Shown here: positions 7,780 to 43,954 of the stretch, in pieces
Position numbering within the stretch: position 1 is the first letter of the stretch
How the letters are laid out: each line of letters starts with the position of its first letter
Assembly (NCBI GenBank): GCA_963745295.1
Contig: CAVUWG010000007.1
Coordinates: 258,382 to 322,381 of the forward strand
Length of the DNA stretch: 64,000 nt
DNA from: an uncultured Chloroflexia bacterium
Lineage (GTDB): Bacteria > Chloroflexota > Limnocylindria > Limnocylindrales > CSP1-4
Direction: 5' to 3'
The notes under the pieces: generated by a model
What the model was told of the DNA's origin: nothing
Seen by the model: only the letters and a program-made list of their open reading frames with translations
The model's database searches: none
Translations under genes and position numbers: made by a program

Positions 7780-7783
7780 AGGC

Positions 7784-27083: not shown

Positions 27084-28094
27084 ATGGCGCCCGTCGACGT
27101 CCCACCGCTGCGCTACCTCTCGTCCGGCGACGTGCTCGCGGCGATGCCGTCGCTCGAGGAGCGCCTGACGCTCGCGGAGCGGACGATGACGGCGCTCGTG
27201 TCTGATGCCGAGCTGCCACCGAAGATCGGCGTCCACCCGCGGTCGGAGGGCTCCTTCGCCCACGCGATGCCGGCGCACCTGCGCGGCGCCGACGGTGGCG
27301 GGGCGGACGACCTGCTCGGGATCAAGTGGGTGGCTGGGTTCGGCTCCAACGCCGCGCTCGGCCGGCCGGCGATCAGCGCCCTGGTGGTCCTGAGTGACCC
27401 GACGACCGGCGAGCCCGTGGCGATCCTCGATGGCGGACCGATCACCGCGATGCGCACGGCCGCGGTCTCGGGCGTCGCGATCCGCCGGTTCGCGCCAGCA
27501 GTCCACGGCCGTCCGACCCGGGTGGCCCTGATCGGAGCCGGTGTCCAGGGTCAGAGCCACTTGCCGGTCCTCGGCGCGACCCTGCCGAATCTGGAGCTCG
27601 CGATCAACGACCGGGACCCGGTCCGGGCCGAGGGGCTGGCCGCGCTCGCCCGCGACACCGACGGGATCGCCTCGGTCCGCGTCGCGCCGTCTGCCCGGGA
27701 TGCGGTGGGCGATGCGGACGTCGTGGTGACCGCCGCGTCGTTCACCTCCCCATCCGAGCGCCAGCCGATGACGGGGGACTGGCTCACCGCGGACGCCCTC
27801 ATCGTGGCCGTCGACTACGCCACGTTCGTCGCCGCCGAGGTCGCCCGCGACGCCGCGCTCTTCCTCGTCGACGAGCGCGTCCAGTTCCTCGCGAACCGCG
27901 ACGTCGGCCAGTTCGACGACTATCCGGACCCGACGGCCACCCTCGGTGAGGCGATCCTCGCCGGCACGCCGCGCCCGCCGACCGGTCGCGTGCTCGTCAC
28001 ACACCTGGGCGTCGGCCTCGCCGACGTCATCTTCGGGGCCGCGATCCTGCGCCGGGCGGCCGAGGCCGGCCGTGGCGTGGTCCTGCCGCGATGA
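27084..28094 (+). CDS. Ornithine cyclodeaminase/mu-crystallin family protein
   Basis: 'GIKWVAGF..N...GRPAISALVVLSDPTTGEPVAILDGGPITAMRTAAVSG...ALIGAGVQG' is the OCD/mu-crystallin pattern. Confidence 0.85.
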   Translation: MAPVDVPPLRYLSSGDVLAAMPSLEERLTLAERTMTALVSDAELPPKIGVHPRSEGSFAHAMPAHLRGADGGGADDLLGIKWVAGFGSNAALGRPAISALVVLSDPTTGEPVAILDGGPITAMRTAAVSGVAIRRFAPAVHGRPTRVALIGAGVQGQSHLPVLGATLPNLELAINDRDPVRAEGLAALARDTDGIASVRVAPSARDAVGDADVVVTAASFTSPSERQPMTGDWLTADALIVAVDYATFVAAEVARDAALFLVDERVQFLANRDVGQFDDYPDPTATLGEAILAGTPRPPTGRVLVTHLGVGLADVIFGAAILRRAAEAGRGVVLPR

Positions 28095-29299
28095 CGGAGC
28101 GCGGCGAGGCCCCGTCGCCCGAGGTCGTCGTGATCGGGGCCGGGACCATGGGCGCCTGGACCGCGCTCCACGCCCGGCGGGCGGGCATGGCCACGACCCT
28201 GATCGACGCGTTCGGGGCCGGCAACGCCCGGGCCACCTCGGGCGACGAGACGCGGATCATCCGGGCGTCGCACGGCGACGACCGGCTCTACTCGACGTGG
28301 TCGCGGGCGGCCCAGGCGGCCTGGATCGCGTTCGGGGAGCAGGTCGGCGAGACGATCTTCGTGCCGGCGGGCGTGCTCTGGCTCGCGCACGGCGAGAACG
28401 GCTTCGAGCGCGCATCCGAGACGCTCCTCCGCGACATGGGCGTCCCGGTCGAGCACCTGGGCCCGGCCGACGTCGCCGCGCGCTGGCCGCACATCGCGGC
28501 CGACGACCTGGCCTTCGCCACCTTCGAACCCGAGGCGGGCCTCCTGCTGGCGCGCAAGGGCATCGCGGCGGTCGCCCGCCGGTTCACCGAGGAGGGTGGC
28601 CGGTTCGAGTTCGGCTGGGCGCGGCCGGGCCGCACGAGCGGTCGACGGCTCCTCGAGGTGGTCACGGAGGACGGCCGGGCCTTCACGGCGGACCAGTTCG
28701 TGTTCGCGGCCGGGCCCTGGCTGCCGCGGCTCTTCCCCGGCATCCTCGGCGACGTCATCCGGGTGACCAAGCAGGACGTCGTCTTCGTCGGGCCGGCGCC
28801 AGGCGACGACCGGTTCGATTCCGACCATCTGCCGTGCTGGGTCGACTACGACGCCGCCTTCTACGGGATCCCATCGATCGACGGCAAGGGCATGAAGCTG
28901 GCGCCGGACCGCTACGGGCCGGTGTTCGACCCGACCCACGGCGAACGGATCGTCGACGCCGAGTCGGTCCGCCTGGCCCGCCGGTACGTGGCCCGGCGGT
29001 TCCCGGGGCTCGCCGACGCGCCGGTCGTGGAGTCGCGGGTCTGCCAGTACGAGACGACGCCGGACACGCACTTCGTCATCGACCGCCACCCGGACTTCGA
29101 CAACTGCTGGCTGGTCGGTGGCGGCTCCGGCCATGGCTTCAAGCACGGCCCCTCGATCGGCGAGCACGTCGTCGGGCGGCTGACCGGCCGGCCGGCGAGC
29201 CCGGACGAGGCGCGGTTCGCCCTCGGGCACGAGCGGGTCTCGCGACGCAACCTGCGGACCGGGGCGGACACGATGGTCCAGGGCTGGTCGGACTGGTAG
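28091..29299 (+). CDS. FAD-dependent oxidoreductase (DAO / sarcosine-oxidase-like)
   Basis: 4-nt overlap with the OCD gene. 'VVVIGAGTMGAWTA' dinucleotide fold and 'WLVGGGSGHGFKHGPSIG' C-terminal FAD motif. Confidence 0.85.
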   Translation: MTERGEAPSPEVVVIGAGTMGAWTALHARRAGMATTLIDAFGAGNARATSGDETRIIRASHGDDRLYSTWSRAAQAAWIAFGEQVGETIFVPAGVLWLAHGENGFERASETLLRDMGVPVEHLGPADVAARWPHIAADDLAFATFEPEAGLLLARKGIAAVARRFTEEGGRFEFGWARPGRTSGRRLLEVVTEDGRAFTADQFVFAAGPWLPRLFPGILGDVIRVTKQDVVFVGPAPGDDRFDSDHLPCWVDYDAAFYGIPSIDGKGMKLAPDRYGPVFDPTHGERIVDAESVRLARRYVARRFPGLADAPVVESRVCQYETTPDTHFVIDRHPDFDNCWLVGGGSGHGFKHGPSIGEHVVGRLTGRPASPDEARFALGHERVSRRNLRTGADTMVQGWSDW

Positions 29300-29328: not shown

Positions 29329-29910
29329 TCAGCCCTCGCGCAGCTCCCAGTGGAACCGTTCGGCCTGCTCGGCGGGCGACTCGAGCTGGCTGTAGAGACC
29401 GCCGTGGTACAGGAGCGGCGGGGCGTCCTGCGGGTTGAGCCAGACCGACCGGATGAGCGCCACGAAGACCGTGTGCGAGTACGCCTCGTATGAGGTGTCG
29501 ACCTCGCACTCGAGATGGGCGAGCGACCCGCGCAACCGGGGCGTCGCGTCGGCGGTCGGGTCGGGCATGAGCCAGTCGCCGCGCAACCGCTTGTCGCCGC
29601 CCTGGCGGCTGCAGTGCAGCGCGATGGGGCGCTGCCCGATGGACAACAGGTTGACGCCCAGCCAGCGCGCCTCGGCGATCTCGCCGTGGGCACGCGCCTC
29701 CTTGTTGATGCACAGCAGCAGCGATGGCGGCGTGTCGGACAACGAGCACATCGAGGTCGCGGTCATCCCGCACGGCGCACCGGTGCCGTCGACGTAGGTC
29801 ACGACGACGACGGTCGCCGCATGGCGTCGAAACGCCTGGCGGAACAGTTCGGCGCCGGTCAGCGGATCGTCGTCGAGGCCGCGCGTCAGATCGTCGGGCA
29901 TGGCGCTCAT
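29329..29910 (-). CDS. NAD(P)H-flavin reductase component (HpaC-like)
   Basis: 'FRQAFRRHAATVVVVTY...GMTATSMCSLSDTPPSLLLCINK...HTVFVALI' is a flavin_reduct domain. ATGA overlap with the HpaB-like stop. Confidence 0.85.
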   Translation of the reverse strand: MSAMPDDLTRGLDDDPLTGAELFRQAFRRHAATVVVVTYVDGTGAPCGMTATSMCSLSDTPPSLLLCINKEARAHGEIAEARWLGVNLLSIGQRPIALHCSRQGGDKRLRGDWLMPDPTADATPRLRGSLAHLECEVDTSYEAYSHTVFVALIRSVWLNPQDAPPLLYHGGLYSQLESPAEQAERFHWELREG

Positions 29911-31346
29911 GATTCCCCGATGCCTTCCAGGCTTCGCCGGACATGCGCCCGGCCGGTCTCCCAGTCGTAGGCACGGAACACGCGCAGGTCGGCGATGTGT
30001 TGTGCGGTCGAGTAGAACATCTCGTACTGCAACTGTCGACCACCGAACTCCGTGCCGACCAGGTCCCACAGCAGCCGCAGGAGGCCGGACGCGGTCGCGG
30101 GCCGGCAGCGTCGCGGACCGGAAGTAGCGCTGGACGTCCTCGGCCGTCTCGGGCGATTCGAAGCTCTCGGCCGACGGGAGGGCGATGAACCCGCCGCCCC
30201 CGAGCTCACGGAGCGCGCGCATCAGGTCGACGATCCAGCGGCGCTGCAGGCTCATGGCCGGGTAGATGAACCGTGGCGCCGGCAGGGCCAGATCGCCCCG
30301 CAGCTCCGGGCGGAGCTCCGCGCCGAGGACGAGCGCGTCGAGCGCGGAGCAGAAGGCCGCGATCTCGCCACCCATCTGGGCCTGGACCGGCGTGATCGCC
30401 GAGATCCCGTGGGCGTCGGCGAGTTCGATCGCGAGACCCGACGCGAACTCCATCTTGACGAGGAAGCGCACGAGCGCCTGGTAGTTCGCCAGCAGGTGCG
30501 CCCCGGTCTCGTGGAACTGGGCGCTGACGAGCCCGGGATCGCGATGGACGAAGACGTGCTCCCAGGGGATCGAGCACGTCGTCGAGCACGATGAGGCTGT
30601 CGGACTCGTCGAAGCGCGAGGTCAGCGGGTAGTCGAACGTGCTCGTCGTGGGCGAGGCGTACGGACGTCGCGGGTAGATGCGCAGGCCGGCCGCGTCGAG
30701 CGGCATCACGACCGAGATCGCGTAGTCCTCGTCGCCCGGCTGCAGGGGCACGATCGAGCTCAGGAAGAGCCAGTCGGCGATGGCCGCCGACGTGCCGATC
30801 ATCTGCGCCCCGCGGATGACGATGCCGTCGTCGCGCTCCTCGACGATCCCGGGATACAGGAACGGCTCGGGCTGGAGATGGGCGGGCTTCGAGCGATCGA
30901 CCTGGGGCGGCGTGATCGCGTAGGCGATGAACCAGTCCGCCGCGCGCGCCCGCTCGTAGAAGGCGATGACGTTGTCGCCGTATCGGGCTGCCGGCCCGGT
31001 CGAAGACCTGGCGCATCCCCGCGAAGCCCGTGATGAGCGACGCGACGTGGTCAGGCGTCCGACCCATCAGCCCGAAGCTGCCCTCTGCCCAGTGGCGATG
31101 GACGCGCCGCCGGGCCGCGAGGTCCTCGGCCGATCTCGGGATGAGCCACATCGCGCTCGATGTGCGCCCGCCGTCCTCGTGGGCGAGGTCGGGGCGTTCG
31201 AGTGCGCTGTCGTACAGCGAGGCGATGACGCGTGCCGGGCCGGCGAAGCCCGGGTGCGTGCTGACGTCGGCGACCGGCTCGCCGTCGAGCAGCACGGTCC
31301 GCCCATCCCCGGCGATGGCCGAGAGGTAGTCCGCTCCGCGCCGCAT
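29907..31346 (-). pseudogene. 4-hydroxyphenylacetate 3-monooxygenase-family oxygenase component (HpaB-like), broken by three frameshifts
   Basis: Homology runs through 4 segments in 3 frames. Segment 1 is 'MRRGADYLSAIAGDGRTVLLDGEPVADVSTHPGF...GMRQVFDRAG' (31346 to about 30990). Segment 2 is 'YGDNVIAFYERARAADWFIAYAITPPQVDRSK...IRGAQMIGTSAAIADW...SLIVLDDVL' (to about 30577). Segment 3 is 'PWEHVFVHRDPGLVSAQFHETGAHLLANYQALVRFLVKMEFASGLA...DVQRYFRS' (to about 30090). Segment 4 is 'LLRLLWDLVGTEFGGRQLQYEMFY...GIGES*'. Confidence 0.8.
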
Positions 31347-33208
31347 CAGGCCACGCCCCGCTTGTCGGTCCGGGACGCACGCGGCTTGCTCGCTCGCGCC
31401 CGTGCCGGGGCGGCGTCGGTGACACGATGCAGCTCGCGCTTGAGCTCCACCTCGAGCAACTCGTGCACGGCCAGCTGCGCGACGATCGGACGCAGCGTGT
31501 GATCGCGAGCGGGCAGCTGGCCCATCTCGAGGTTCGGCCAGCGATGGAGCTGGCCGAGCAGGCCATCCCGTTCGAGCTCGGCGTGGACCGGCTCCTCGTC
31601 GGAGAAGGCCATCACGACCCGGATGTTCCGGTCCCGCAGTCGGTCGAGGATGCCCTCGACCGACGCCGCGACGGCATCCGGCCGGCCGCCCCGTCGCACG
31701 AGACGCCCGGGCAGCGCGGCGACGTCGCGCATGCCCTGGCTGGCGGTCGCGCGGGCCACCGCGACGATGTTCTTGCGCTTGACCTGACCGCGCAGGATGC
31801 GGTTCCACCATGCGGTGCGTCGCAGGCGGTGGAGCTTGCGGGCGTTGCGATCCTTCACGAGCTTCGGGTGCCACTCGAGGGCGCCGGGGTTGACCATCAG
31901 GGCCGCCACCGCGCGCTCGTCGCGATCGGCCGCGTTGAACGCCCAATAACCGCCGGCACACAACCCGGCGAGCACGAACCGGTCACCGTAGCCGCGGGCC
32001 TCGAGCGCATCGAGGAACGTGCTGACGAAGCCGCCCAGCTCGGAGCGGTAGAACTCGCCGACGTCGCGGTATCGGCTCGCATCCCCGTCCGAGTCGCCGA
32101 TCCCCTCGAGATCGACACGCAGCGTCGGCAGTCCCTCGGCCGCGGCTCGGCGCGCGGCCTCGACCCAGAGTCGGTTGGGGCCGATGCGGCGGACCGCGCC
32201 GGCGTTGAGGAAGACCGCGGCAAGGGGCGGCCGCGGCCCATCCACGGGTTCGGCCAGGATCCCGAAGAGGGTCCCGACCTCGTGCTCCACCATGAACGGG
32301 GCCTCGCGGACGCGGACCCCGCCGACATCGAGGAACGCCTCGTCCCGCCCGACCACCGTTGCCTCGGACGGCGGCGCCGTGGCGCCGCGCACGACGGGTG
32401 CCGCGGCCAGCCAGGCGTCAACCGCCGCGAAGACCCCGAGCGGCGGGTCGAAGCGCTCCGGGTGGAACGTCATGGCGCCCCAGCCGGCTCCCGACGCGGT
32501 GGTCACGTCGACGACGGCATCCTCGAGGTGCCGGCGCAGACCGGCATCGACCGGGATCCCGTCGTGGTCGAGCAGCAGGGCGCGCTGGAGCCCACCGGTC
32601 GACAGGCCAGCCAGGGTCAAGGCCTCGAGATCGGCCACCGTCTCGGCCGAGAGGGTGAACCCGTTGACCTCCATCCAGCCCTCGGGCAGCAGGGACGGTT
32701 CCGGTTCGCCGGTCAGGCTGTAGCGCGAGGTCTGGAGGCCGGCGAAGGCCCGCTCCGCCCGCACGAACGCGCGGCCGTTGCCGGGCGTGGCCCAGGCCAC
32801 GAATTCGTCGATCGCCGCGTCCTCGCTGATCGCCTTGATCGCGACCAGGCCGCCCAGGCCCATCCCGATCGCTGCGACGCTCCGGCCACCGGTCGAATCG
32901 CGCAGCCAGGCTGCGGCGGCGGCCGTGGCCTCGGTCCAGGCCGCGAACCTGCCGCCGTCGGCGGGGACGCCGGCGCTGTCACCGGAGCCCGGGAAGTCGA
33001 AGCGCAGCGTCGGATGGCCGGCCTCGGCCAGGTGCTCGGCCCACGCCCGGCGAGCCCGATACGACGCCACGTCGTTCCAGCCCCAGGGCGGGCACAGCAG
33101 GACGGCCGTCGCCGGCGAGGCGTCGGACGACGGGGCGTGATACACCGCGAACACCGGCCCCGAGGCCAGGTCGAGGTAGAGCGGGCGGGCGGGCGGGCGT
33201 CGGGTCAT
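31346..33208 (-). CDS. Fused double alpha/beta-hydrolase. The N-half has GMGLG in place of GxSxG; the C-half has a GLCAG Cys-type nucleophile elbow.
   Basis: 620 aa with two alpha/beta-fold halves. First half: 'LLCPPWG...RFDFPGSGDSAG...AAIGMGLGG'. Second half: 'AVFLNAG...LRVDLEGIGDSDGD...FVLAGLCAGGYWA'. ATGA overlap with the GH2 stop and a 1-nt overlap with the HpaB-like start. Confidence 0.7.
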   Translation of the reverse strand: MTRRPPARPLYLDLASGPVFAVYHAPSSDASPATAVLLCPPWGWNDVASYRARRAWAEHLAEAGHPTLRFDFPGSGDSAGVPADGGRFAAWTEATAAAAAWLRDSTGGRSVAAIGMGLGGLVAIKAISEDAAIDEFVAWATPGNGRAFVRAERAFAGLQTSRYSLTGEPEPSLLPEGWMEVNGFTLSAETVADLEALTLAGLSTGGLQRALLLDHDGIPVDAGLRRHLEDAVVDVTTASGAGWGAMTFHPERFDPPLGVFAAVDAWLAAAPVVRGATAPPSEATVVGRDEAFLDVGGVRVREAPFMVEHEVGTLFGILAEPVDGPRPPLAAVFLNAGAVRRIGPNRLWVEAARRAAAEGLPTLRVDLEGIGDSDGDASRYRDVGEFYRSELGGFVSTFLDALEARGYGDRFVLAGLCAGGYWAFNAADRDERAVAALMVNPGALEWHPKLVKDRNARKLHRLRRTAWWNRILRGQVKRKNIVAVARATASQGMRDVAALPGRLVRRGGRPDAVAASVEGILDRLRDRNIRVVMAFSDEEPVHAELERDGLLGQLHRWPNLEMGQLPARDHTLRPIVAQLAVHELLEVELKRELHRVTDAAPARARASKPRASRTDKRGVA

Positions 33209-35769
33209 GCGCTCGGGGCCATCGTGATCGGGACGCGGCCCGCGAGGTTGATGGCGCTGAGCTCGCCGCCGAGGACGGCGTCGGGCGTCACGGCCCGCAG
33301 GTCGATCTCGCGCGAGCCACCGGGCTCGATCGAGAAGGCGTCGTCGTCGGGCCGGAAACCAGGGGCGTGGACCCGCACGCCGTACGCGAGGCGCCGGCTG
33401 CGAACGGTCATCCGCACGATCCCGTCGCCGCACGGCCGTGCATCGGCCGACAGGCCCAACCGATCGGCGGGCTCGATGCGGGACGGTCGTCCGGCCGGGA
33501 AGCGGAACGCCTGGGACAGCACGGCCGGGCCCGGTCCACCGTCGCGTTCCAGGGTCGCCACGATCACGTCCTGGGCCGGCGGCCCGAAGCGATAGGCCCA
33601 TGACACGTCGGCGAAGTGCCCGATGAGGGCCTCGACGCTGCGCTCGTCGGCACCGTGCGCCTCGATCCGGAGGGTCTCCTCGCCGTCCCCGACGCGCTGC
33701 TCGAGGTCCCGGTAGAGCGCGACCCGGAGCCTGGCGTCGAGCGGTTCGGGCCCGTCGTTGGCGACATGGGCGACGACGCCGCCCAGCCCTTCGTCCGTCG
33801 TCCAGACGGCGGCCGGCGCGAGGGCTCGCCGCAGGTGGTGGTAGACGACCTTGGGCGCGCCGTGATGGTCGACCACGCCCCAGCCGGCGCCCGCCACCAG
33901 GTCGCGGAGCCACAGGACGAGCCCCCCGCCGCAGGGCGATCCGGCACGCCGCCACTCGCCGAAGACCTCGGCCATCACCTCGCCGCTGACCGCGCGCGAC
34001 AGCTCGAGATATCGGGCGTGGTCGACGCGCCGGAGCTCACCGGGGTCGAGCTCGAAGAGCAGCGCCAGGTAATGATCGCGCACGTCGTCGAAGTCCCAGC
34101 CGCTCCCGGCGTCGCGGGGCACACCGGCCTTCCAGACCGGGTGATGGACGACCACGCCGGTCGTGGCGCCCGGCAGCATCGACTCGATCACCGCGTCGTC
34201 GGGGACGTTCGCGAAGGCCAGGCACTCCGACGCGAACCGGACGCCGGCGATGCGGGCGTCGGTCAGCGGCCGCTGGTACCCGCCGACGCCGTAGTAGTTG
34301 GCGACGCCGTGGTCCGGGCGGAACGGGAGGTCGCCGCCGAAGGGCGCCGAGGGGACGTAGACCGCATCGCTGCCGGCATCGACAGCGAGGGCCGGCAGCG
34401 TGCTCGCGAAGAATGCGTCCCGGCCGAGCGTGGGGTCCAGCCCCAGCATCGCGACCTGCTGCTCGATCTCGCTGTTGCCGCACAGGACGGCGGTGCTCGG
34501 GCGGCCCGACAGGCGACCCAGCACCTCGGTCGCCTCGCGCTCGGCGAGCCCGCGGAACGCGTCGTCGGCGAACGGGTAGTCGAGGTTGGCGAACATGAAG
34601 TCCTGCCACACGAGCAGGCCGAGCTCGTCGCACAGGTCGTGGAAGTCGTTCGACTCGTAGGCGCCCGTGCCGGGCAGCCGGACCATGTTCATCCCGGCGC
34701 GGCGCACGGTCTCGAGGGCCGCTGGGCGGTCCGCGGCGGTCGTGGCGAGCCCGACGATGTCGGTCGGTGTCCAGAGCGCACCGCGGGCGAACGTCCGGAC
34801 GCCGTTGACGTGCAGGTCGAGGCCGTCGCGCTCGATGTCGTGCGCGGCCGTCGGACCGGCGGTGAGCGTCCGGAACCCGACGCGTCCGGCATCGATCGCG
34901 GTCGTCGCCGTCCCGGACCCGACGACCAGGCGGACCTCGTGGAGGGCAGGGACGCCGTGCGTGTGCGGCCACCAGCGCTCGACCGACGGGACTCGCAGCG
35001 TGCCACGGAACGTGATGCCGCCGCCGGCCGGCGACAGATCGAGGGCGACCGTGTGGTGGCCGGACGGCCCGTCGATCTCCGCCCGGACCTGATCGGGCGT
35101 CGTCCCGTCGAGCGTGCGGATGCGACCATCGACGTGCAGGAGGCCGGCCTCACCCTCGACGCCGGGCCGCAACGTGAGTGCTTCCACGACCAGGCCGCGA
35201 CGGCGCGCCAGCCAGACCGGTCGCCACGGGCCGACGGCCGGCGGACCGGGCGCGAACCCGGGCGCCCGGCCGAGGATCATGGTCCGGACCCACCGGAGCC
35301 GCCCGTCCGCGACGAGGTTGGTGCGCCAGCGGGCCCGCGGCTTGCGCGGGACCTCGAGGGCCGGGGTCAGCGGCAGGCAACGGATCACCAGCTCATTCGT
35401 GCCGCGCAGCCGGCCGCCCACCTCGATCTCGTGGGCCTCGAACATCGAACCCACGTCGGCGATCCGCTCGCCATTGAGCTCGACCTCGGCCAGGGTGGCG
35501 ATGCCGTCGAGACGGAGCACGACATCCTCACCGCTCCCCGCCGGGGCGGCCTCGAACGTGGTCCGGAACGTCCACGCCTGGCCGTCGAGGTCGTCGCCGA
35601 TCGCGACGCCCGCGTCACGAAGGACGCCCGCGGCTGTGCCCGGGACGTGCGCCGGCCGCCAGGTCAGCGCGTCGGAGCCGTCGGTGACGGCGGCTTCCCA
35701 GCCGTGGTCGAGCGACCGGATGTCGTGGCCATCCACGCGATGGCGCCACGGGGACTGCGCGAGCGGCAT
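33205..35769 (-). CDS. Glycoside hydrolase family 2 protein (beta-mannosidase-like)
   Basis: 854 aa. N-terminal sugar-binding domain 'VVLRLDGIATLAEVELNGERI', 'NMVRLPGTGAYESNDFHDLCDELGLLVWQDFMFAN', acid/base-like 'CGNSEIE' and nucleophile-like 'FASECLAFANVP'. Confidence 0.85.
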   Translation of the reverse strand: MPLAQSPWRHRVDGHDIRSLDHGWEAAVTDGSDALTWRPAHVPGTAAGVLRDAGVAIGDDLDGQAWTFRTTFEAAPAGSGEDVVLRLDGIATLAEVELNGERIADVGSMFEAHEIEVGGRLRGTNELVIRCLPLTPALEVPRKPRARWRTNLVADGRLRWVRTMILGRAPGFAPGPPAVGPWRPVWLARRRGLVVEALTLRPGVEGEAGLLHVDGRIRTLDGTTPDQVRAEIDGPSGHHTVALDLSPAGGGITFRGTLRVPSVERWWPHTHGVPALHEVRLVVGSGTATTAIDAGRVGFRTLTAGPTAAHDIERDGLDLHVNGVRTFARGALWTPTDIVGLATTAADRPAALETVRRAGMNMVRLPGTGAYESNDFHDLCDELGLLVWQDFMFANLDYPFADDAFRGLAEREATEVLGRLSGRPSTAVLCGNSEIEQQVAMLGLDPTLGRDAFFASTLPALAVDAGSDAVYVPSAPFGGDLPFRPDHGVANYYGVGGYQRPLTDARIAGVRFASECLAFANVPDDAVIESMLPGATTGVVVHHPVWKAGVPRDAGSGWDFDDVRDHYLALLFELDPGELRRVDHARYLELSRAVSGEVMAEVFGEWRRAGSPCGGGLVLWLRDLVAGAGWGVVDHHGAPKVVYHHLRRALAPAAVWTTDEGLGGVVAHVANDGPEPLDARLRVALYRDLEQRVGDGEETLRIEAHGADERSVEALIGHFADVSWAYRFGPPAQDVIVATLERDGGPGPAVLSQAFRFPAGRPSRIEPADRLGLSADARPCGDGIVRMTVRSRRLAYGVRVHAPGFRPDDDAFSIEPGGSREIDLRAVTPDAVLGGELSAINLAGRVPITMAPSA

Positions 35770-35773
35770 GGTG

Positions 35774-36748
35774 TCAGCGTACGACCTCGTCCAACGCGCT
35801 CATCGCCCGGTCCCACGCGGACGCCAGGCCCCCGAGCGCCTCGCTCGGGTCGAACGGCCGCCGCCGCGCGAGCTTGAAGCCCAGGAGCTTCGAGCCGTCC
35901 ACGATCTCCGCCATCGCCGCCGACGCCGGCGCACCCGCTTCGCCCAGCAGCCAGTCGACGTGGGCGGCGCAGAGCTCGAACCCGGCCCCCGCCATCCGGA
36001 CCGTCGCGAAGGCGTACGCGTGGTAGTCGGACTCGTCGCCGTCGAGGAGCACCGGCAGGTCGATCGCGAGCTGCCCGCCGAAGCGCCCGAACGGGTTCCC
36101 TGGCGCGACCCGGTCCAGGTGGTAGCGCAGCCGTTCTCGCGCCGCAGCCTTGAGGCCGTCGCCCTCCAGCCGAGGCCCGACGTCGAAGCGGACCAACTCC
36201 GTGTACGGCGGCAGCACATCGTCCGTGAGCATCGTGGCCTGGCGGAAGACGCCGCGGTAGTCCTCGCCCTCGAGCTCGTACAGCGACGCGTTGTGGAAGT
36301 AGCGGAGCCGCTCCTCGTCGGGGTCGATCGCCTCGACCGCGACCGAGGTCTTCACGTGTTCGCGGCGATAGCTCGTGGCCGCGGTGTCGGGCAGGTACCA
36401 GGCGTCCAGCTCGACCGTCAGGGTCCGGCCCTCGCGGATGAGCTCCGAGATCTGGACCGGCAACGGCCGGTACGGCTGCATCTCGTGGATGTCGACGCCG
36501 AAGAGCAGCTCCATGTCGGCCGGGTGAGGCTTGAAGAACGTCCACTGGTCACCCTCGAAGTCGAGGCGGACCGTGGAGCCCAGCGCCGCGAGCGGCTCGT
36601 CGCCGCGAGCATGGAGCAGCTCGATGAGGATGTCCGTGTAGCAGTTGGTCTCGTGGTACGTCTGCCCACCGGCGTGGAGCGGGTGGGGCTGGTAGGTCGC
36701 CGGATCGTGGCCGAACAGGCTGACGAGACCGGCGGTCGAGGTGCTCAT
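35774..36748 (-). CDS. DUF1839-like protein (possible BtrH-like carrier-protein-dependent acyl/aminoacyl transferase). In the literal sequence it is read through from the ligase ORF.
   Basis: 'MSTSTAGLVSLFGHDPATYQPHPLHAGGQTYHETNCYTDILIELLHARG...FEGDQWTFFKP...LDAWYLPDT' about 324 aa. The family call is from memory of DUF1839 proteins that neighbour aa:CP ligases. It needs HMM confirmation. Confidence 0.6.
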   Translation of the reverse strand: MSTSTAGLVSLFGHDPATYQPHPLHAGGQTYHETNCYTDILIELLHARGDEPLAALGSTVRLDFEGDQWTFFKPHPADMELLFGVDIHEMQPYRPLPVQISELIREGRTLTVELDAWYLPDTAATSYRREHVKTSVAVEAIDPDEERLRYFHNASLYELEGEDYRGVFRQATMLTDDVLPPYTELVRFDVGPRLEGDGLKAAARERLRYHLDRVAPGNPFGRFGGQLAIDLPVLLDGDESDYHAYAFATVRMAGAGFELCAAHVDWLLGEAGAPASAAMAEIVDGSKLLGFKLARRRPFDPSEALGGLASAWDRAMSALDEVVR

Positions 36749-37679
36749 CCCCAGAGCTGCCCGGCGGACCTCGGCCGGCCACGACTCGACATCGAGGCCA
36801 TGGGTCCGCAGCAGGGCAAGCACGATCCGCTCGTGACCGAACCCGAGACATGCCGTGTGGACCTCGCCGCCGTCGGTCGTTGTCAGGCCATGCATCGTCG
36901 CGAAGTGGCTCTGGTGGTAGTTGAACGAGGCCACCGCCGTAGGCGCGGGCCCGGCGATCTGCACGAGGATCTCGAACTTCAGCGCCTGTTCGCGCTGGCT
37001 GGCCGCGAGCATCCGGCCGCTGCGTCCGAAGAACGGGTCTGCCGCGACGTCGTAGGCGGCGGCGAGGCCCAGCCCCCGCAGGAGATCAAGCCCGCGCTGC
37101 AGCCACTCGTCGCGCCAGGCCGAGACCGTCTCCGGCTCGCCCATCCGGATCAGCTCGCGCATGTGGAACATCTGGAGCCGGGCCGGGTCGTCCGACGGCT
37201 CGTGCCGGAAGACGTACGAGCCGCCCGGATCGATCGTGACGCCGCCGGGCGGGAGCGGACCGCGCGCGGCGATCGCGGGGTAGATCGGGTAGCAGGCGGC
37301 CGGCACGAGGACCAGCTCGGTCATGCGCTGGTGTTCGCTCCAGTCCTCGTGGCGCGACGCGCGCTCGTACTGCTCGAGGGCCTGCGCCTCGGTCCCCTCG
37401 AAGCCGAAGATCGCGCCGGCCAGGTGCGGGAAGGACTTGAGGTAGCCGCTGGTCTCGAACTGGCCGCGCGGGAGCACGCGGCGGGAAGCGGATCGGCTCG
37501 GCGTTCTGGTCGGCCGAGCAGCGCGTCGACAAGCTCGTCGAAGCGCAGGCGGATGTCCTCGAAGACGCGGCCGCGCCCATAGACGCCCGAGGTGCCGGTC
37601 CGGATGAGCAGGCCGTGCTCGAACAGTTCGCGCGAGGAAGGCAGATCTGGTCGGCGGTGGCCGGCTGGAACTCGGCCAC
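36745..37679 (-). pseudogene. Amino acid:[carrier-protein] ligase (tRNA-independent truncated SerRS-like class II synthetase). There are three frameshifts in the first 70 codons plus loss of the stop codon.
   Basis: AAGGAGG-N5-GTG start at 37679. Core in frame 37477: 'VLPRGQFETSGYLKSFPHLAG', zinc-site 'PAACYP', motif 2 'YVFRHEPS', 'ASFNYHQSHF' and motif 3 'TACLGFGHERIVLALL'. The N-terminal pieces 'VAEFQPATADQICL', 'SRELFEHGLLIRTGTSGVYGRGRVFEDIRLRFDELVDALL' and 'ADQNAEPIRFPP' lie in alternating frames. Removing one G/C at 36760-36762 gives 'VRRQLWG*' with an ATGA overlap onto the next gene. Confidence 0.75.
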
Positions 37680-38855
37680 CTAGACCTCCTTGGCGATGAG
37701 CAGCAGGCTCGCGTTGGTCTGGTGGATGCGCTCGTTGGCGACCATCAGCGATGCCGACATCGTGTCGCGCAGGTGACGACCGATGCTGAAGGGCGTGTCG
37801 TTCTTGTAGCCGACGATGCCGCACACCGACATCGCGCCCTGGCAGACGCGGGGCGCCTGCTCGGAGGCCGCGATCTTGAGGTTGTTGAAGCGCAGGATCG
37901 TGGACATCATCGAGAGGCGTTCCCGGCCGGGGCTCTCAGAGGCCTCGGTGAACTCGCGCAGCGCCGAGTGGACCTCGGCCCGCAGCAGCGAGAGCTCGCT
38001 CATGAGATGCGAGAGGCGCAGCGCGGTCGGCGGCACCTGGTCCGGTCGCTGCTTCGCCGAGGCCCGCACGAAGGCGCGGGCACGGTCGAACGCGTCGGTG
38101 GCGATGCCGAGCCAGATGTGCGACCAGAGGAGGTGCGAGACCGGGACCATCGATTCGGTCGCGACCACCGGGAAGGGGGTCGGGAGGACCTGGCCGGCGT
38201 CGAACTCGGCGCGGACCACGTACCCGGGCGAGCAGGTGCCGCGCATCCCGAGCGGGTCCCATGTGCCGGTCTGCTCGAGCGTGACCTGGTCCTTGTTGGT
38301 GAGCGCGACGACCTGGTCGCCCGGCTCGGCATCGGGGGTCCGCCGGAGCGTGGTGAGCAGGTCGTCGGCATAGGCGCCGTACGAGACGGTCGGTGCCTGC
38401 TTCTCGAACGTGGCGCGGCCGTCGCTCCCCGGCGTGACCGCCGCGATCGATCGACCCAGGTCGCCACCGGTGCCGACTTCGGACGTGACGGACGCGACGA
38501 GCCGCTGCTCGCTCGCGACGTCCCGGAGCCAGGCCTCGAACCACGGCGCCCCGTCGAGGTGCCGCACCACGCAGGCGATCTGGATCTGGTGCATCGCGAA
38601 GACCATGGCGGTCGCGCCGCAGCGACGGCCGAGCTCGAAGCACGCGGCCGCGATCGCCTCGAACGAGACGCCGCCGCCGTCGAACTCCTCGGGGATGAGG
38701 GCCGAGAGCGCGCGCTCCTCACGCAGCGCGGCGATGGCCTCGACCGGGAATCGTGCCTGCTTGTCGACGTCGTCGGCGTTGGGCGCCGCGACCTCCTCGG
38801 CGATCCGGCGGATCGCGGCGAGGAACGCCTGGTCGCGATCGATGGCGACGCTCAT
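37680..38855 (-). CDS. Acyl-CoA dehydrogenase-family flavoenzyme (likely acts on a carrier-protein-bound substrate)
   Basis: 391 aa with the ACAD three-domain pattern ('ATAMVFAMHQIQ', 'VTSEVGTGGDLG', 'WDPLGMRGTCS', 'CGIVGYKNDTPFSIGRHLRDTMSASLMVANERI'). ATGA overlap with the ACP stop. Its stop abuts the ligase GTG. Confidence 0.9.
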   Translation of the reverse strand: MSVAIDRDQAFLAAIRRIAEEVAAPNADDVDKQARFPVEAIAALREERALSALIPEEFDGGGVSFEAIAAACFELGRRCGATAMVFAMHQIQIACVVRHLDGAPWFEAWLRDVASEQRLVASVTSEVGTGGDLGRSIAAVTPGSDGRATFEKQAPTVSYGAYADDLLTTLRRTPDAEPGDQVVALTNKDQVTLEQTGTWDPLGMRGTCSPGYVVRAEFDAGQVLPTPFPVVATESMVPVSHLLWSHIWLGIATDAFDRARAFVRASAKQRPDQVPPTALRLSHLMSELSLLRAEVHSALREFTEASESPGRERLSMMSTILRFNNLKIAASEQAPRVCQGAMSVCGIVGYKNDTPFSIGRHLRDTMSASLMVANERIHQTNASLLLIAKEV

Positions 38856-39097
38856 GCCGCCTGCGCGCCCAACGACTGGAGCGCCTCCGTGATCGAGGCG
38901 ACGCTCTGGAAGACGCTCCGCTTGAGCATCGCGTCCGGGAACTCCACGTCGAACGCGGCCTCCAGCGCGAGCATCAGGTTGACGCTCGCGTGTGAGGTCA
39001 TGCCGGCCTGGTACAGGTCCGCGTCGTCAGGCAGTCCCTGGACGTCGACGGGCAGGCGGCCGTGTTCCTTGATGATCTGTCGAACCTGGTCGCTCAC
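38852..39097 (-). CDS. Dedicated acyl/aminoacyl carrier protein
   Basis: 81 aa: 'VSDQVRQIIKEHGRLPVDVQGLPDDADLYQAGMTSHASVNLMLALEAAFDVEFPDAMLKR'. This is a four-helix ACP pattern with the Ser in 'GMTSHA' at the phosphopantetheine position. GTG 39097 was chosen; in-frame ATG 39205 is an alternative. Confidence 0.75.
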   Translation of the reverse strand: MSDQVRQIIKEHGRLPVDVQGLPDDADLYQAGMTSHASVNLMLALEAAFDVEFPDAMLKRSVFQSVASITEALQSLGAQAA

Positions 39098-39392
39098 GAC
39101 CGAACCCCCAAACTGATAAGTGCATTGACCCCGATGAACCCCGATTCCTCGGCCCACAGGCCGGCGGAGCATACGATAGCCGTACTGGCCAGAGTATCCA
39201 GCCATAAGTCCTACTCCGCGTTGGCCGAAGGCAACACTTGCACCAGGTTGCGGTCGTGATGCCCGCCTTCCTGCCCCGAATCCAGACCGCCCAAGACCGC
39301 CGCGCACCACCCGGGACCGCTCCGGATCGACATCGATGGGGCGTGCGGCTGGCGGTCTCGGCCCATGATCCGGGCGGCGTAGGATTCGGGCC

Positions 39393-39797
39393 ATGCCGAT
39401 CCGGGTCGGTCTCGATCTCGTGGCCGTGATGAGCGTCGAGGAGTCGCTGCGCGCCGCGCATGGCGAGCGCTATCTCGAGCGCCTCTTCACCGAGCGCGAG
39501 GTCGCGGACTGTCGGACGGCGGCGGGCGTCGACCCGGAGCGGCTGGCGGCAAGGTTCGCCGCAAAGGAGGCGACGCTCAAGGTCCTGCCGGCCGCCGATG
39601 AGGGTGTGTCCTGGCAGGAGATCGAGGTGCGACGCGAGCCATCCGGGCGGGTCCATCTCGAATTGCGCGGTCGTGCCGCGCAGCTTGCCGCGGAGGCCAA
39701 GATCATCGACCTTGCCCTGAGCCTCACGCACGAGGGCGGGTTCGCGGCGGCCGTGGTCGTCGCCGAGGTCCGTCACGAGGCGAGCCGCGAGTCCTAG
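39393..39797 (+). CDS. acpS: Holo-[acyl-carrier-protein] synthase (AcpS-type 4'-phosphopantetheinyl transferase)
   Basis: 'IRVGLDLVAV...RLFTEREVADC......RFAAKEATLKVL......WQEIEV......LSLTHEGGFAAAVVVA' is the AcpS family pattern. Divergent from the carrier-protein operon. Confidence 0.85.
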   Translation: MPIRVGLDLVAVMSVEESLRAAHGERYLERLFTEREVADCRTAAGVDPERLAARFAAKEATLKVLPAADEGVSWQEIEVRREPSGRVHLELRGRAAQLAAEAKIIDLALSLTHEGGFAAAVVVAEVRHEASRES

Positions 39798-39803: not shown

Positions 39804-40139
39804 CTACTCGCTGATCTCCAGCGGCCCGTCCGGGACCTCGATCGCGACCCGGCCGTCGACGATCACGACCGGATAGATCGCGAGCGGCTCCTCGGCCGGG
39901 GGGTCGAGCGGCTCGCCGTTCTCGAGATCGAAGCGCGACAGGTGCAGCGCGCACGTCAGTGTGCCGTTCGTCAGGAAGCCCTTGTCCAGCTCGAAATACT
40001 CGTGCGAACAGATGCCCTGGAGGGCCTGGAAGTCGCCGTTCATGTTGACCACGAGGACCTGGTCCGTGCCGTCGACGAAGCACATCTTCATCGTGCCCTC
40101 GGGCACCTCGTCGACCCCGCACAGGTCAAGGCGCCTCAT
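39804..40139 (-). CDS. Rieske [2Fe-2S] domain protein (suf-operon associated)
   Basis: 'CSHEYFEL' (CxH) and 'CALHLSRF' (CxxH) Rieske ligands. 111 aa, downstream of sufD. Confidence 0.8.
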   Translation of the reverse strand: MRRLDLCGVDEVPEGTMKMCFVDGTDQVLVVNMNGDFQALQGICSHEYFELDKGFLTNGTLTCALHLSRFDLENGEPLDPPAEEPLAIYPVVIVDGRVAIEVPDGPLEISE

Positions 40140-40191
40140 GCCGTTGCCCGGAGGTCCGACCCGCGTCGCCGCGGGCGAGGTTGTGGTGGCA

Positions 40192-41562
40192 TCAGGCCGC
40201 GGTGGCTCCCTGCCCGACACCGCCGGTCGTGCCGGCCGTCCACTTCGCCTCGAGCAGGTCGCGCAGGTGATCCTGCGCCTCGCCGAGCGGCACGCGCGCG
40301 ACGACCGGTTCGAGGAAGCCGAGCACGATGAACTTGCGCGCCTCGTCCGGCGGGATGCCCCGGCTCTCGAGGTAGAAGAGCTGCGATTCGTCGATCGGGC
40401 CGACCGAGCTCGAATGGGCAGCCCGCCGGCAATCCGGCTGGTCGATCTCGAGCGAGGGGATCGCGACCGAACGCGCGTCCCGGGACAGGTTCATCCCGAA
40501 CTCGCCGAGGAAGCTGTCGGTGCCGACCGCGCTCTTCTCGATCGTGATGAGGCCCTTCATGTACGTCCGGGCCCGGTCCAGCAGCGCCCCCTTGGACAGG
40601 AGGTTGCCGGTCGTGTCGCGACCGATGTGGGTCGTGTAGGAGGTCAGGTCGAAGAGCTGGTCGACCGCGCCGAAGACGATCTCGACCTGCTCGACCGAGC
40701 TGCGATCGCCCTCGAGGCGATTGTCGATGCGACTGCGGACCAGGCGACCGCCGAGCTGCGCCAACGCCCAGTGCAGCTGGGCGCCCTCACCGATGCGGGC
40801 CACGCGGTGCTGGATCGCGATCGAGTCGGGCCCGAGCTCCTGCAGACCGGCGACCGAGAGCTTCGCGCCCGCCCCGAGGTTGACCTCCATCGTGCCGGTC
40901 AGGAGCGACTGCCGACCCTCGACGGCATCGGCGGACGGCACCAGCTCCTCGACCAGCGAGGCCGCGGCGCCGGTGCCGAGGACGATGAGCGTCCGGGTCA
41001 GGAGCGCCCGGTCGGGCGCGCCCGACACCCAGCGGATGATGATCGGCTGCTCGAGCCGGACGCCGTCGGGGATGTCGAGCACGACGCCCTGGGTCCAGAG
41101 CGCACGGGTCAGCTGGGCGAACTTGTCGTCGGCCGGCAGACCGCTGGAAGCGAGGAGCTCGAGACCACGGTCGCGCTTGCGAGCGAGGTAGTCGGCGATC
41201 GTCGTGAACTCGACCCCGGCGTCCATCGCCGCCGGTGAGAGTGCCGACGCCGTCAGGTCGCCGTCTGTGAACACGAGCAGCCCTGCCGCTCCGTCCGGCA
41301 CCGGCACCTGGACGGGCGACGAGGCGGGCGCCCAGTGGATGCTCGCGTCCGCGAGGGACGCGGCCCGGAGGTCGATGTAGGTCGTGTAGAGGCGGTTCGA
41401 CTCGGCCGGCAGGGCCTCCCAGGCCTCAAGCGCTGCCAGGCGGTCCGGGCTGTCACCGAGCCCGAGCGCACGCAGCCGATCGTCGAGATCGCCCCGGTCG
41501 ACGGGCAATGAGAGGTCGTCGAGGGCCCGGCGAGCCGGGCGGACTGGTCGGCCCTCGGTCAT
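40192..41562 (-). CDS. sufD: Fe-S cluster assembly protein SufD
   Basis: 456 aa with a beta-helix SufB/D domain: 'SRIDNRLEGDRSSVEQVEIVFGAVDQLFDLTSYTTHIGRDTTGNLLSKGALLDRARTYMKGLITIEKSAVGTDSFL...LFYLESRGIPPDEARKFIVLGF'. ATG 41562 overlaps the upstream stop (ATGA). Confidence 0.9.
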   Translation of the reverse strand: MTEGRPVRPARRALDDLSLPVDRGDLDDRLRALGLGDSPDRLAALEAWEALPAESNRLYTTYIDLRAASLADASIHWAPASSPVQVPVPDGAAGLLVFTDGDLTASALSPAAMDAGVEFTTIADYLARKRDRGLELLASSGLPADDKFAQLTRALWTQGVVLDIPDGVRLEQPIIIRWVSGAPDRALLTRTLIVLGTGAAASLVEELVPSADAVEGRQSLLTGTMEVNLGAGAKLSVAGLQELGPDSIAIQHRVARIGEGAQLHWALAQLGGRLVRSRIDNRLEGDRSSVEQVEIVFGAVDQLFDLTSYTTHIGRDTTGNLLSKGALLDRARTYMKGLITIEKSAVGTDSFLGEFGMNLSRDARSVAIPSLEIDQPDCRRAAHSSSVGPIDESQLFYLESRGIPPDEARKFIVLGFLEPVVARVPLGEAQDHLRDLLEAKWTAGTTGGVGQGATAA

Positions 41563-42491
41563 CCAGCGGGCTTCCGGGCCCGCGGCTTCGGGGTGGCCGC
41601 GCGGGGCTTCGGGGCAGCGGTCGCCCGCGGCTTCGGGGCGGCGGCTGCGCGCGGCTTCCGAGCGGTGGATGCTCGTCGTCGTGGAGCGGCGGCGGCCTTG
41701 GCGGCCGCGGCGGCTTCGGCGCGCAGACGAGCCGAGTAGATGTCGAGGGCCTTCCTGGTCTTGGTGTTCTGCTCGCCCGAGGTCTTGACGCCATGCCGCA
41801 GGAGCGATGCCCGGGCTTCGACGGCCGTCTGGAACGTCTGGGATGGCAGGCACTTCGTCGACAGCTCGAGCATGGCCGTGCCGTCGGGGTACAGCCAGAA
41901 CTCGGCGACCATCGGACGGCCGAACCGCTCGGGCGTGAACTTGGTCTTGAGCACGAAGATCGGCCCGAGGACCGAGAGGTCATCCAATGCGATCCCCTCG
42001 GGCGCGTGTGCCGCGTAGAACGCCCGCTGCGCCTTCGAGAAGAGCTTGCGGATGGGCCGGGCCTTGGCCACCACGGGCCGGACGTCGTCCTTGCCCAGCG
42101 CCGCGCTCAACGATGCCGAGCAGACGTACTTGCCGCCCGGCATCGCGTCCACCTCGACCTTGAAGCCGGGGGTCTGACGGAACGCGGGCGTGAGCTCCTC
42201 GGGCCGGATCGGCCGGAGCTTGACCGTCGAATCGTCACCTCGACCCTGGACGCGACGAGCGCGGACCACGACGCCGCTCTTGCTGAGCTTGAGGTCCGGC
42301 GTGTCGAAGAAGAACACCTGTCGGATCTGCGACCCCAGCGGATCGAGACCCAGCGCGTTGATCGTCGCCCGCCGGTCGGCATCCGCGACCGAGAGCTTGA
42401 GCTCCACGCTGTCGGACCCGCGGACGAGCTCCATCAGGTCTGTGAGTTGCTCGTCCGTCATGCGCAGACGGCTGGCTTCCGCGATCGCCAT
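41559..42491 (-). CDS. CYTH-like (triphosphate-tunnel) domain protein with Ala/Pro/Lys/Arg-rich histone-like C-terminal tail, embedded between sufB and sufD
   Basis: gaggagggga RBS lies before ATG 42491. Alternating charged beta-strands: 'SVELKLSV', 'VVVRARRV', 'STVKLRP', 'FKVEVDA', 'MLELSTK'. Tail is 'AAAKAAAAPRRRASTARKPRAAAAPKPRATAAPKPRAATPKPRARKPAG'. The fold assignment is tentative. Confidence 0.55.
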   Translation of the reverse strand: MAIAEASRLRMTDEQLTDLMELVRGSDSVELKLSVADADRRATINALGLDPLGSQIRQVFFFDTPDLKLSKSGVVVRARRVQGRGDDSTVKLRPIRPEELTPAFRQTPGFKVEVDAMPGGKYVCSASLSAALGKDDVRPVVAKARPIRKLFSKAQRAFYAAHAPEGIALDDLSVLGPIFVLKTKFTPERFGRPMVAEFWLYPDGTAMLELSTKCLPSQTFQTAVEARASLLRHGVKTSGEQNTKTRKALDIYSARLRAEAAAAAKAAAAPRRRASTARKPRAAAAPKPRATAAPKPRAATPKPRARKPAG

Positions 42492-42550
42492 GGTGCGTTC
42501 TCCCCTCCTCGATGTGCCGCGCTCGGTCCACAGTTCGGACCGAGACGGTA

Positions 42551-43954
<1,404 letters not shown>

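Follow-up and report, generated by a model that had tools for sequence, protein, structure and literature searches.

Ligases that charge a small carrier protein with an amino acid, independently of tRNA, have been defined biochemically since 2010. Homologues of the ligase treated here use Gly or Ala, and loading of the carrier protein has been demonstrated for them. Bll0957 and Bll6282 of Bradyrhizobium and Atu2573 of Agrobacterium are reportedly such amino acid:[carrier protein] ligases, in work by Mocibob and colleagues from 2010 and 2013. In a review of 2022, the role of these ligases and the fate of the aminoacyl-carrier protein were still stated as unknown, and literature searches found no later functional study of the gene module described below. 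Here we describe a cluster of eight genes built around a ligase of this type in a stretch of 64,000 nucleotides (referred to as the window) from an uncultured Chloroflexia bacterium (GenBank assembly GCA_963745295.1, contig CAVUWG010000007.1, positions 258,382 to 322,381). The cluster was pointed out by an earlier reading of the sequence made without database searches (hereafter, the original prediction), which proposed a carrier-protein-based pathway for a small molecule or glycoconjugate. The reading preferred here, with a probability slightly better than even (roughly 0.55), is that the cluster belongs to a module, shared across phyla, that transfers aminoacyl groups from a carrier protein, probably to a sugar or polysaccharide, that the HpaB-type oxygenase and its flavin reductase are optional to it, and that the frameshifts in the deposited sequence are artefacts.

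By its sequence, the ligase is a member of the Bll0957-type family, namely a catalytic core like that of seryl-tRNA synthetase (SerRS) without a tRNA-binding domain. PAACYP, YVFRHE and TACLGFGHERIVLALL are found in the sequence, and with TACLGFGHERIV beside the first two, the class II core motifs 2 and 3 and the residues of the zinc site can be recognized, as the original prediction had stated. In an alignment of ligase homologues including Bll0957 (alignment A1), the zinc-site residues C128, E159 and C276 are invariant, and identity to Bll0957 is ~45%. Profile searches with the ligase and with HpaB, both of which are frame-broken as deposited, were run on frame-pieced translations. The pieced ligase passes the cut-off of the NCBIfam aa--[ACP] ligase family and has no match in Pfam. 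The sequences of the Bll0957 crystal structures (PDB 4h2w and 3mey) match it at E~1e-78 (best 8e-79), and its match to the profile of methanogen-type SerRS is confined to the C-terminal catalytic part (positions 356-504 of 518). Intact orthologues have 308-314 aa. The neighbouring carrier protein keeps the motif DLYxAG[ML][TS]S across phyla and gives weak matches to DltC (E=4e-05). Cut-offs are also passed by this protein and by the phosphopantetheinyl transferase (PPTase) on the other side of the divergent region (Table 1), in agreement with the proposal of a tRNA-independent ligase served by a carrier protein and a PPTase of its own. The window ligase resembles Bll0957, Bll6282 and Atu2573 in family, in the Cys/Glu/Cys of the zinc site, in the lack of a tRNA-binding domain and in the adjacent dedicated carrier protein; it differs from them in that it comes from another phylum and is frame-broken as deposited.

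The fate of the loaded amino acid may be found in the DUF1839 protein, which, judging from its modelled structure, is likely a Cys transacylase of the CcbD/CtaG type that would move an acyl group from a carrier protein to an amine acceptor. CcbD transfers a carrier-protein-bound amino acid to the amine of an amino sugar by a ping-pong mechanism through its Cys, and the catalytic triad of CcbD and LmbD is Cys-His-Glu (PMC12945683). CtaG is a papain-like ligase that depends on a peptidyl carrier protein, and its structural relatives include BtrH and AsbE. The role of BtrH as a carrier-bound acyl transferase has been confirmed (PMC10318531; PMC12865890). An AlphaFold (AF2) model of the DUF1839 protein, obtained with a predicted local distance difference test (pLDDT) of 86.9 and a predicted template modelling score (pTM) of 0.87, was compared with known structures by Foldseek. 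Full-length matches to CcbD, CtaG and AziU3/U2 were found, with template modelling (TM) scores of ~0.6 and probability 1.00; the CcbD match has E=5e-07 and a query TM score (TMq) of 0.61, and the CtaG match a TMq of ~0.6. The next class, phytochelatin synthase, reaches a TMq of 0.27, and ordinary papain-like proteins are far lower. The model has a bipartite fold, in which a papain-like domain at the N-terminus is followed by long C-terminal helices at residues 196-323. In three phyla, no variation is seen at Cys36, His131, His152, Asn153 or Asp163, and Cys36 is placed at the N-terminus of a helix (residues 36-48). As a candidate triad, Cys36, His152 and Asp163 have a spacing that resembles that of Cys11, His128 and Asp144 in CtaG. 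The original prediction had named this protein as the transfer enzyme after the example of BtrH, and the proteins matched by the model, CcbD and CtaG, are in the structural class that the literature gives for BtrH. At the level of sequence profiles, the link that it suggested to the Pfam family BtrH_N did not appear: neither BtrH_N nor DUF6005 matched at E up to 10.

The gene combination itself is not new. Relatives were found by a scan of species-representative genomes, which gave at least 597 loci, designated here by L numbers. The best 80 of these were inspected. They come from metagenome-assembled genomes (MAGs) of Solirubrobacterales and from MAGs labelled Chloroflexia, Anaerolineaceae or Limnocylindrales, and counts of flank-dependent genes refer to the 62 loci with adequate flanks. 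The carrier protein is present in 61 of the 62, the protein resembling acyl-CoA dehydrogenases (ACADs) in 59, DUF1839 in 57, the glycoside hydrolase family 2 (GH2) protein in 56, the double hydrolase in 53 and the PPTase in 50. The order carrier protein, ACAD-like protein, ligase, DUF1839, GH2 and double hydrolase is kept in 44 loci and recurs in three phyla, on which ground a chance juxtaposition of the genes was rejected; the combination seen in the original prediction is thus a real and old one in related genomes. In 48 of the 62 loci, a PPTase gene is found upstream of the ligase at a distance of no more than 3 kb (43 co-directional, 5 divergent). The species-representative loci closest to the window (L030, L008-L010 and L049) are labelled 'uncultured Chloroflexia', and most other relatives of the ligase are from Solirubrobacterales.

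Among plasmid and chromid records, tblastn detected DUF1839 in 65 that belong to cultured proteobacteria. In the RefSeq annotation of Azospirillum brasilense and Mycetohabitans endofungorum, genes for an acyl carrier protein (ACP), the ACAD-like protein, the ligase, DUF1839 and GH2 are followed by one for an alpha/beta-hydrolase of ~600 aa. Rhizobium sp. NLR16a has the same five-gene core, two genes of glycosyltransferase family 4 (GT4) and a 1,103-aa alpha/beta-hydrolase, and Caballeronia and Shinella have the five-gene core only. This five-gene neighbourhood was already given in the supplement of an earlier study (Ozhelvaci and Steczkiewicz, 2023; PMC10318531). The statement of the original prediction that no described pathway combines these parts therefore does not hold, as the core was described in 2023 and the six-gene module is annotated in RefSeq. 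The window has the five genes of the proteobacterial loci in unchanged order, with the double hydrolase next as in Azospirillum and Mycetohabitans, whereas the dedicated PPTase, HpaB and the flavin reductase are additions of the window copy that were found in none of the proteobacterial loci examined. In sum, the cluster is a member of a widely conserved, already catalogued and functionally orphan module.

Of the remaining core enzymes, the ACAD-like protein had been expected to act as a dehydrogenase on the aminoacyl-carrier protein. The position of the canonical catalytic base (YEG) argues otherwise: it reads MVA or MI[SN] in all phyla, without Glu, and after alignment with short-chain acyl-CoA dehydrogenase the surrounding residues are L-M-V-A-N here and L-M-I-[SN]-N in proteobacteria. 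Its NCBIfam matches include SfnB, DszC and HsaA as well as ACADs. The model has TM scores of 0.7-0.8 to proteins of the ACAD fold, with low confidence at the C-terminus including the YEG region, and Foldseek ranks TdsC/DszC, KijD3, DnmZ and MsuC above true ACADs by a small margin. From sequence and model together, a role as oxidase or oxygenase is more probable for this protein than one as a canonical alpha,beta-dehydrogenase. For the GH2 protein, Pfam agrees with the family assignment of the original prediction in the N-terminal domain only, while all other products of the cluster agree with their assigned families in Pfam or NCBIfam. A sequence search of PDB extends the relation: residues 14-655 match the Bacteroides beta-mannosidase Man2A (BtMan2A) at E=6e-41, and the motifs CGNSE and FASE align with CGNNE and FMSE of that enzyme. 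We take CGNSE to hold the acid/base Glu and FASE the nucleophile Glu.

The double hydrolase was expected to match TIGR03100 and TIGR03101. Both halves do so, the N-terminal half with TIGR03101 (86.1 bits, cut-off 202.75) and the C-terminal half with TIGR03100 (78.0 bits, cut-off 168.45), and neither reaches the cut-off. In the N-terminal half the elbow reads G-x-[G/R]-x-G and has no nucleophile. In the C-terminal half an invariant elbow G-x-C-x-G is found, with Cys417, His570 and a conserved DH near the C-terminus, which agrees with the Cys-type hydrolase of the original prediction. Four minimal loci (L014, L050, L053 and L062) consist of the carrier protein, the ligase and one or two double hydrolases, and have neither DUF1839 nor GH2. 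They hint at a second, simpler system on the same ligase. Because only the carrier protein, ligase and hydrolase are kept in them, it is suggested that the double hydrolase acts directly on the loaded carrier protein.

A glycan is suggested as the acceptor by the GH2 gene of the invariant core, by neighbourhoods of exopolysaccharide (EPS) genes and by a gene fusion in Rhizobium, and the glycoconjugate link proposed in the original prediction gains from each of them. EPS-assembly families (Bac_transf, GT4, Wzy_C, Wzz/kinase, CpsB, DegT sugar aminotransferase and GFO/IDH/MocA) were counted within 10 kb; at least one was found in 29 of the 80 loci and at least two in 18, figures to be read as raw counts. 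On plasmid p3 of Rhizobium sp. NLR16a (L088, 13898-17209), a Wzx-type membrane domain (Polysacc_synt_3) is fused to the double hydrolase in the protein of 1,103 aa, and the fusion gene is flanked by the two GT4 genes directly after the core from ACP to GH2. In L004, glycosyltransferase genes surround the module together with those for a UDP-glucose dehydrogenase and an epimerase. Three FemAB-like genes (Acetyltransf_6) precede the module in that locus, and GINT1_N/GH43-like and beta-helix (NosD-like) genes lie between GH2 and the hydrolase; these genes are at 4884-8429 and 14574-17320 of L004.

These observations can be arranged in a scheme, which largely bears out the mechanistic logic of the original prediction and puts its transfer step on firmer ground. 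The PPTase would convert the carrier protein into its holo form, and the SerRS-like ligase, by analogy with its homologues, would adenylate a small amino acid and bind it to the carrier protein as a thioester. The ACAD-fold flavoenzyme may then oxidize or oxygenate the tethered residue or the acceptor amine. The acyl group would pass to Cys36 of DUF1839 and from there to an acceptor amine, in the manner of CcbD, CtaG and BtrH; fold and gene context make an amino sugar or glycan precursor the most plausible acceptor. Finally, GH2 and the Cys-type double hydrolase may act in glycan processing, or in the release or proofreading of intermediates. More specifically, and only as a tentative proposal with clearly less than an even chance, the module could be a widespread, tRNA-independent route by which a small, possibly N-oxidized or hydroxylated, amino acid becomes attached to an amino sugar within a polysaccharide repeat unit or another glycoconjugate, with DUF1839 as the CcbD-like condensing enzyme. 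If this is true, the amino acid:[carrier protein] ligases gain a biological role, and the origin of the amide-linked amino acids of some glycans is explained. The same module occurs in cultured Rhizobium and Azospirillum, so that the hypothesis is genetically testable in cultured bacteria.

The HpaB-family monooxygenase and the flavin reductase are lineage-specific accessories of a small subclade and optional to the pathway. HpaB is found in 2 of the 62 loci and the flavin reductase in 6, some of them without HpaB (for example L003 and L008). The window has both HpaB domains and an adjacent flavin reductase, as is expected of a two-component HpaB/HpaC system. The frame-pieced HpaB scores 281.7 with TIGR02309, below the cut-off of 480.2; Thermus HpaB matches it at E=6e-71, and the closest solved relatives are phenol-type hydroxylases. 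The original prediction had made HpaBC a step of the pathway, for which these counts and relatives give no support, and had raised the question of whether GH2, the double hydrolase and HpaBC occur together. GH2 and the hydrolase do so widely, but HpaB is present in the 2 loci only. The additions of HpaB, flavin reductase and the ornithine cyclodeaminase (OCD) gene described below follow the Chloroflexia-labelled group.

As deposited, the ligase and HpaB are not continuous open reading frames (ORFs). The ends of all genes were placed correctly in the original prediction, although eight insertions within these two were overlooked. The ligase span comprises 935 nt, which is not a multiple of three, and the protein is spread over several frames; HpaB passes through frames 0, 1 and 2 and back to 0. 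The insertions were placed by tblastn and by global pairwise alignment to intact orthologues in L001 and L002 (ligase 309 aa, HpaB 478 aa; nucleotide identity ~80-85%). Five single-base insertions lie in the ligase, at ~37647, 37633, 37528, 37478 and 36759, and three in HpaB, at ~30990, 30570 and 30084. The last of the ligase insertions removes the stop codon, so that the 3' part of the ligase runs into DUF1839 as an ORF of 567 aa. Its presence in the public annotation (P0214) shows that the deposited contig (519,900 bp) itself contains the frameshifts. No obvious common sequence motif was found at the eight insertions, and none is in a homopolymer. Outside the cluster, an unrelated IclR-family regulator gene (11567-12491, plus strand) is split over two frames near 12.2 kb, probably by a further assembly frameshift: one frame holds HTH_IclR and IclR_C positions 22-85, the other IclR_C positions 98-173.

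That the cluster is decaying in this organism, with real frameshifts in the ligase and HpaB and a non-functional pathway, is improbable, and somewhat less so for HpaB alone. Eight frame-breaking insertions in two genes and broken ORFs in the public annotation are what decay would predict. Yet +1 insertions account for all eight events, deletions and nonsense changes being absent, and the pieces of the broken genes keep the coding signal in GC content at third codon positions (GC3) and 79-100% identity to the intact orthologues. The split of the IclR gene outside the cluster likewise speaks for assembly error. Two sister assemblies of near-identical strains, L006 and L007, were reached via the flavin reductase and PPTase sequences (overall identity 98.2% for one and 99.3% for the other). 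All five ligase insertions are absent from both, which carry many other single extra bases elsewhere in the cluster; the ~80 extra bases in 5 kb of L006 cannot be of biological origin. The HpaB insertions tell less clearly in the same direction, since those at 30084 and 30570 are common to L007 and that at 30990 to L006; because of this recurrence, HpaB alone has the better chance of real decay. A majority consensus of the three assemblies also restored neither the ligase nor the HpaB ORF, since some extra bases are common to L006 and L007. The related contigs are MAGs of Microflora Danica (MFD), and MFD assemblies were made by Flye from Nanopore reads only, with one round of Medaka polishing (PMC12313526). 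In all three assemblies the flanks are almost the same and free of indels, while the cluster differs by up to 6%; third codon positions are enriched among the substitutions against L006 (132 of 237). Indels pile up at window positions 29900-31400 and 34000-39000 in all three assemblies (window, L005/L006 and L007), and some of them are common. The locus is a haplotype-diverse island. The indels plausibly stem from a mixed-haplotype consensus, and a recombination hot spot acting together with such a consensus is our guess. Most likely, then, the eight frameshifts are consensus errors of a Nanopore-only metagenome assembly and not gene decay. In contigs of this kind, clustered frame-breaking insertions in haplotype-diverse loci can pass for pseudogenes and fused genes in the public annotation.

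With the frameshifts read as artefacts, the transfer of an aminoacyl group to a glycan has still to be weighed, and several observations count against it. Neither an enzyme activity nor a product or acceptor is on record for any module member. The link of DUF1839 to CcbD and CtaG is structural only, with 13-16% identity in the structural alignments, and a profile from the DUF1839 alignment (A2), searched against the sequences of PDB, finds neither CcbD nor CtaG, only spurious matches. For DUF1839, a permuted C-(T/S)-H triad has been proposed, unlike the Cys-His-Asp of the CtaG type (PMC10318531). EPS genes are absent from most loci, and the core of Caballeronia and Shinella adjoins transporters, not glycan genes. 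No transmembrane-like segment was seen in the seven intact cluster products checked, a set without the ligase and HpaB, so any link to the cell surface would be indirect. Some of these points would suit the same enzymes acting on a free small-molecule acceptor, with a soluble specialized metabolite (an aminoacylated sugar, aminoglycoside-like or siderophore-like) as the product instead of a decorated envelope or secreted polysaccharide. Beside the lack of transmembrane-like segments in the products checked and the many loci without nearby EPS genes, this is consistent with the natural-product pathways in which all characterized structural relatives of DUF1839 work (CcbD and CtaG; according to the literature also BtrH and AsbE), and with the TonB-dependent receptor that adjoins the core in Caballeronia. 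It is nevertheless rather unlikely. Neither the window cluster nor the conserved core has a non-ribosomal peptide synthetase (NRPS), a polyketide synthase or a sugar-nucleotide tailoring set; the Wzx-type fusion of Rhizobium, the interleaved GT4 genes and the EPS neighbourhoods favour polymer assembly; and thousands of homologues suit a cell-biological role better than a niche antibiotic. Very improbable is a catabolic or salvage route, in which GH2 and the hydrolases would degrade an aminoacylated glycoside after its import, the released amino acid being recycled by ligase and carrier protein. The hydrolytic catalytic motifs kept in GH2 and the amino-acid ABC or MFS transporters that flank some proteobacterial loci could be explained in this way. 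Against this, a dedicated carrier protein that has its own PPTase and is loaded at the expense of ATP follows the logic of biosynthesis, the ligases to which DUF1839 is structurally related form amides, and the conserved core has no transporter.

The arrangement of the cluster in the window is given in Table 1.

Table 1. Genes and other features of the cluster and its convergent neighbours, in window coordinates
Feature	Position	Strand	Evidence and remarks
AcpS-type 4'-phosphopantetheinyl transferase	39393..39797	+	Pfam ACPS E=3.8e-13; TIGR00556 71.8 > cut-off 45.35; divergent from operon
Divergent intergenic region, 295 bp	39098..39392	.	GC 65.4% vs cluster 72.0%
Carrier protein, 81 aa, GTG start	38852..39097	-	PP-binding E=3.4e-07; NF005480 107.4 > cut-off 72
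ACAD-fold flavoenzyme	37680..38855	-	Acyl-CoA_dh_N 2e-14, Acyl-CoA_dh_1 1.2e-04
Amino acid:[carrier protein] ligase	36745..37679	-	NF005479 393.6 (cut-off 357); five single-base insertions as deposited
DUF1839 papain-like protein	35774..36748	-	PF08893 E=3.1e-93, profile positions 2-312/313
GH2 beta-mannosidase-like protein	33205..35769	-	Glyco_hydro_2_N2; BtMan2A match E=6e-41
Fused double alpha/beta-hydrolase	31346..33208	-	N half ~TIGR03101, C half ~TIGR03100, both below cut-off
HpaB-family flavin monooxygenase	29907..31346	-	HpaB_N 4.5e-79, HpaB 9.3e-49; three single-base insertions as deposited
Flavin reductase	29329..29910	-	Flavin_Reduct E=3.9e-30
OCD/mu-crystallin + DAO-type FAD oxidase pair, convergent	27084..29299	+	Pfam OCD_Mu_crystall 2.8e-34, DAO 2.8e-47

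The layout described in the original prediction was found in full, with eight genes on the minus strand, tight junctions between them, a divergent PPTase and an intergenic region of lower GC, in a window whose GC content is ~70%. ATGA overlaps of 4 nt join the carrier protein to the ACAD-like gene, the ligase to DUF1839, GH2 to the hydrolase and HpaB to the flavin reductase. The hydrolase and HpaB overlap by 1 nt, the ACAD-like gene and the ligase abut directly (TAG, then GTG), and a gap of 4 nt separates DUF1839 from GH2. From these junctions, co-transcription of the cluster is a plausible prediction. Promoter and terminator scans inside the cluster gave matches at chance level only. The divergent region is presumed to be the promoter region of both transcription units; it has no match to an Rfam family or to the sigma-70 consensus. 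Just downstream of the flavin reductase ends the pair of OCD and DAO genes, which is syntenic in the closest relatives. Both genes are present in L001, L002 and L005, and OCD alone in L003, L008-L010, L030 and L049. The pair could supply or consume the amino-acid substrate, and it is absent from most loci.

On the other side, a set of Suf genes for Fe-S assembly lies directly beyond the PPTase (39804-43954, minus strand) and encodes SufB, the product of an unassigned ORF (331 aa), SufD and a Rieske protein. None of these genes is broken, and the closest relatives have them in synteny with the cluster as well. SufB is 96% identical to that of L002 and falls into a 90%-identity cluster with a protein of 'Candidatus Dormibacteraeota'. 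Further away in the window, an S-adenosylmethionine (SAM) riboswitch (RF00162) was found at 4357-4463 (plus strand; 76.5 bits, E=3e-16), with a gene for a pyridoxal-phosphate-dependent enzyme (PALP domain, 4461-5879) directly downstream.

Among characterized systems, the lincosamide pathway, with CcbD/LmbD and the carrier domain of CcbZ/LmbN, is like the window cluster in the fold of a stand-alone Cys enzyme (TM ~0.6 between DUF1839 and CcbD). There, a tethered amino acid is moved to the amine of an amino sugar, and the same logic is proposed here. However, no sequence homology is detectable, loading would be done by a ligase resembling aminoacyl-tRNA synthetases (aaRS) here and is done by an NRPS adenylation domain there, and the window cluster has no thiooctose or mycothiol/ergothioneine genes. 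In butirosin biosynthesis, the 4-amino-2-hydroxybutyrate (AHBA) side chain is provided by BtrI, BtrJ, BtrK, BtrO, BtrV, BtrH and BtrG. The likeness to this system is one of logic, with ATP-dependent loading of an ACP, flavin-dependent oxidation of the tethered group, acyl transfer to an aminoglycoside by a papain-like enzyme and a clean-up hydrolase. The loader of butirosin is an ATP-grasp enzyme, whereas that of the window resembles class II aaRS; the oxygenase folds differ, the window cluster has no decarboxylase, and GH2 has no counterpart in butirosin.

Two systems linked to the cell envelope are also comparable. The exosortase A (PEP-CTERM/EpsH) set contains an AMP-forming ligase, an ACP and hydrolases 1 and 2 (TIGR03100 and TIGR03101). 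The best NCBIfam matches of the two hydrolase halves of the window are hydr2_PEP and hydr1_PEP, and both systems combine a loaded carrier protein with hydrolases in EPS-type contexts. The hydrolases are fused here, however, their scores are far below the cut-offs, and no exosortase or PEP-CTERM genes were seen in the loci examined. The Dlt system (DltA, DltC, DltB and DltD) D-alanylates teichoic acids. The window differs from it by another ligase family, by a papain-like transfer enzyme and by the lack of homologues of the MBOAT protein DltB and of DltD. What the two would share is an amino acid held on a small dedicated carrier protein for an envelope glycopolymer, and the weak DltC match of the carrier protein is in line with this. 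Set beside these systems, the module is not a new kind of system, and an orphan module now has a concrete and testable scheme for a fifteen-year-old question.

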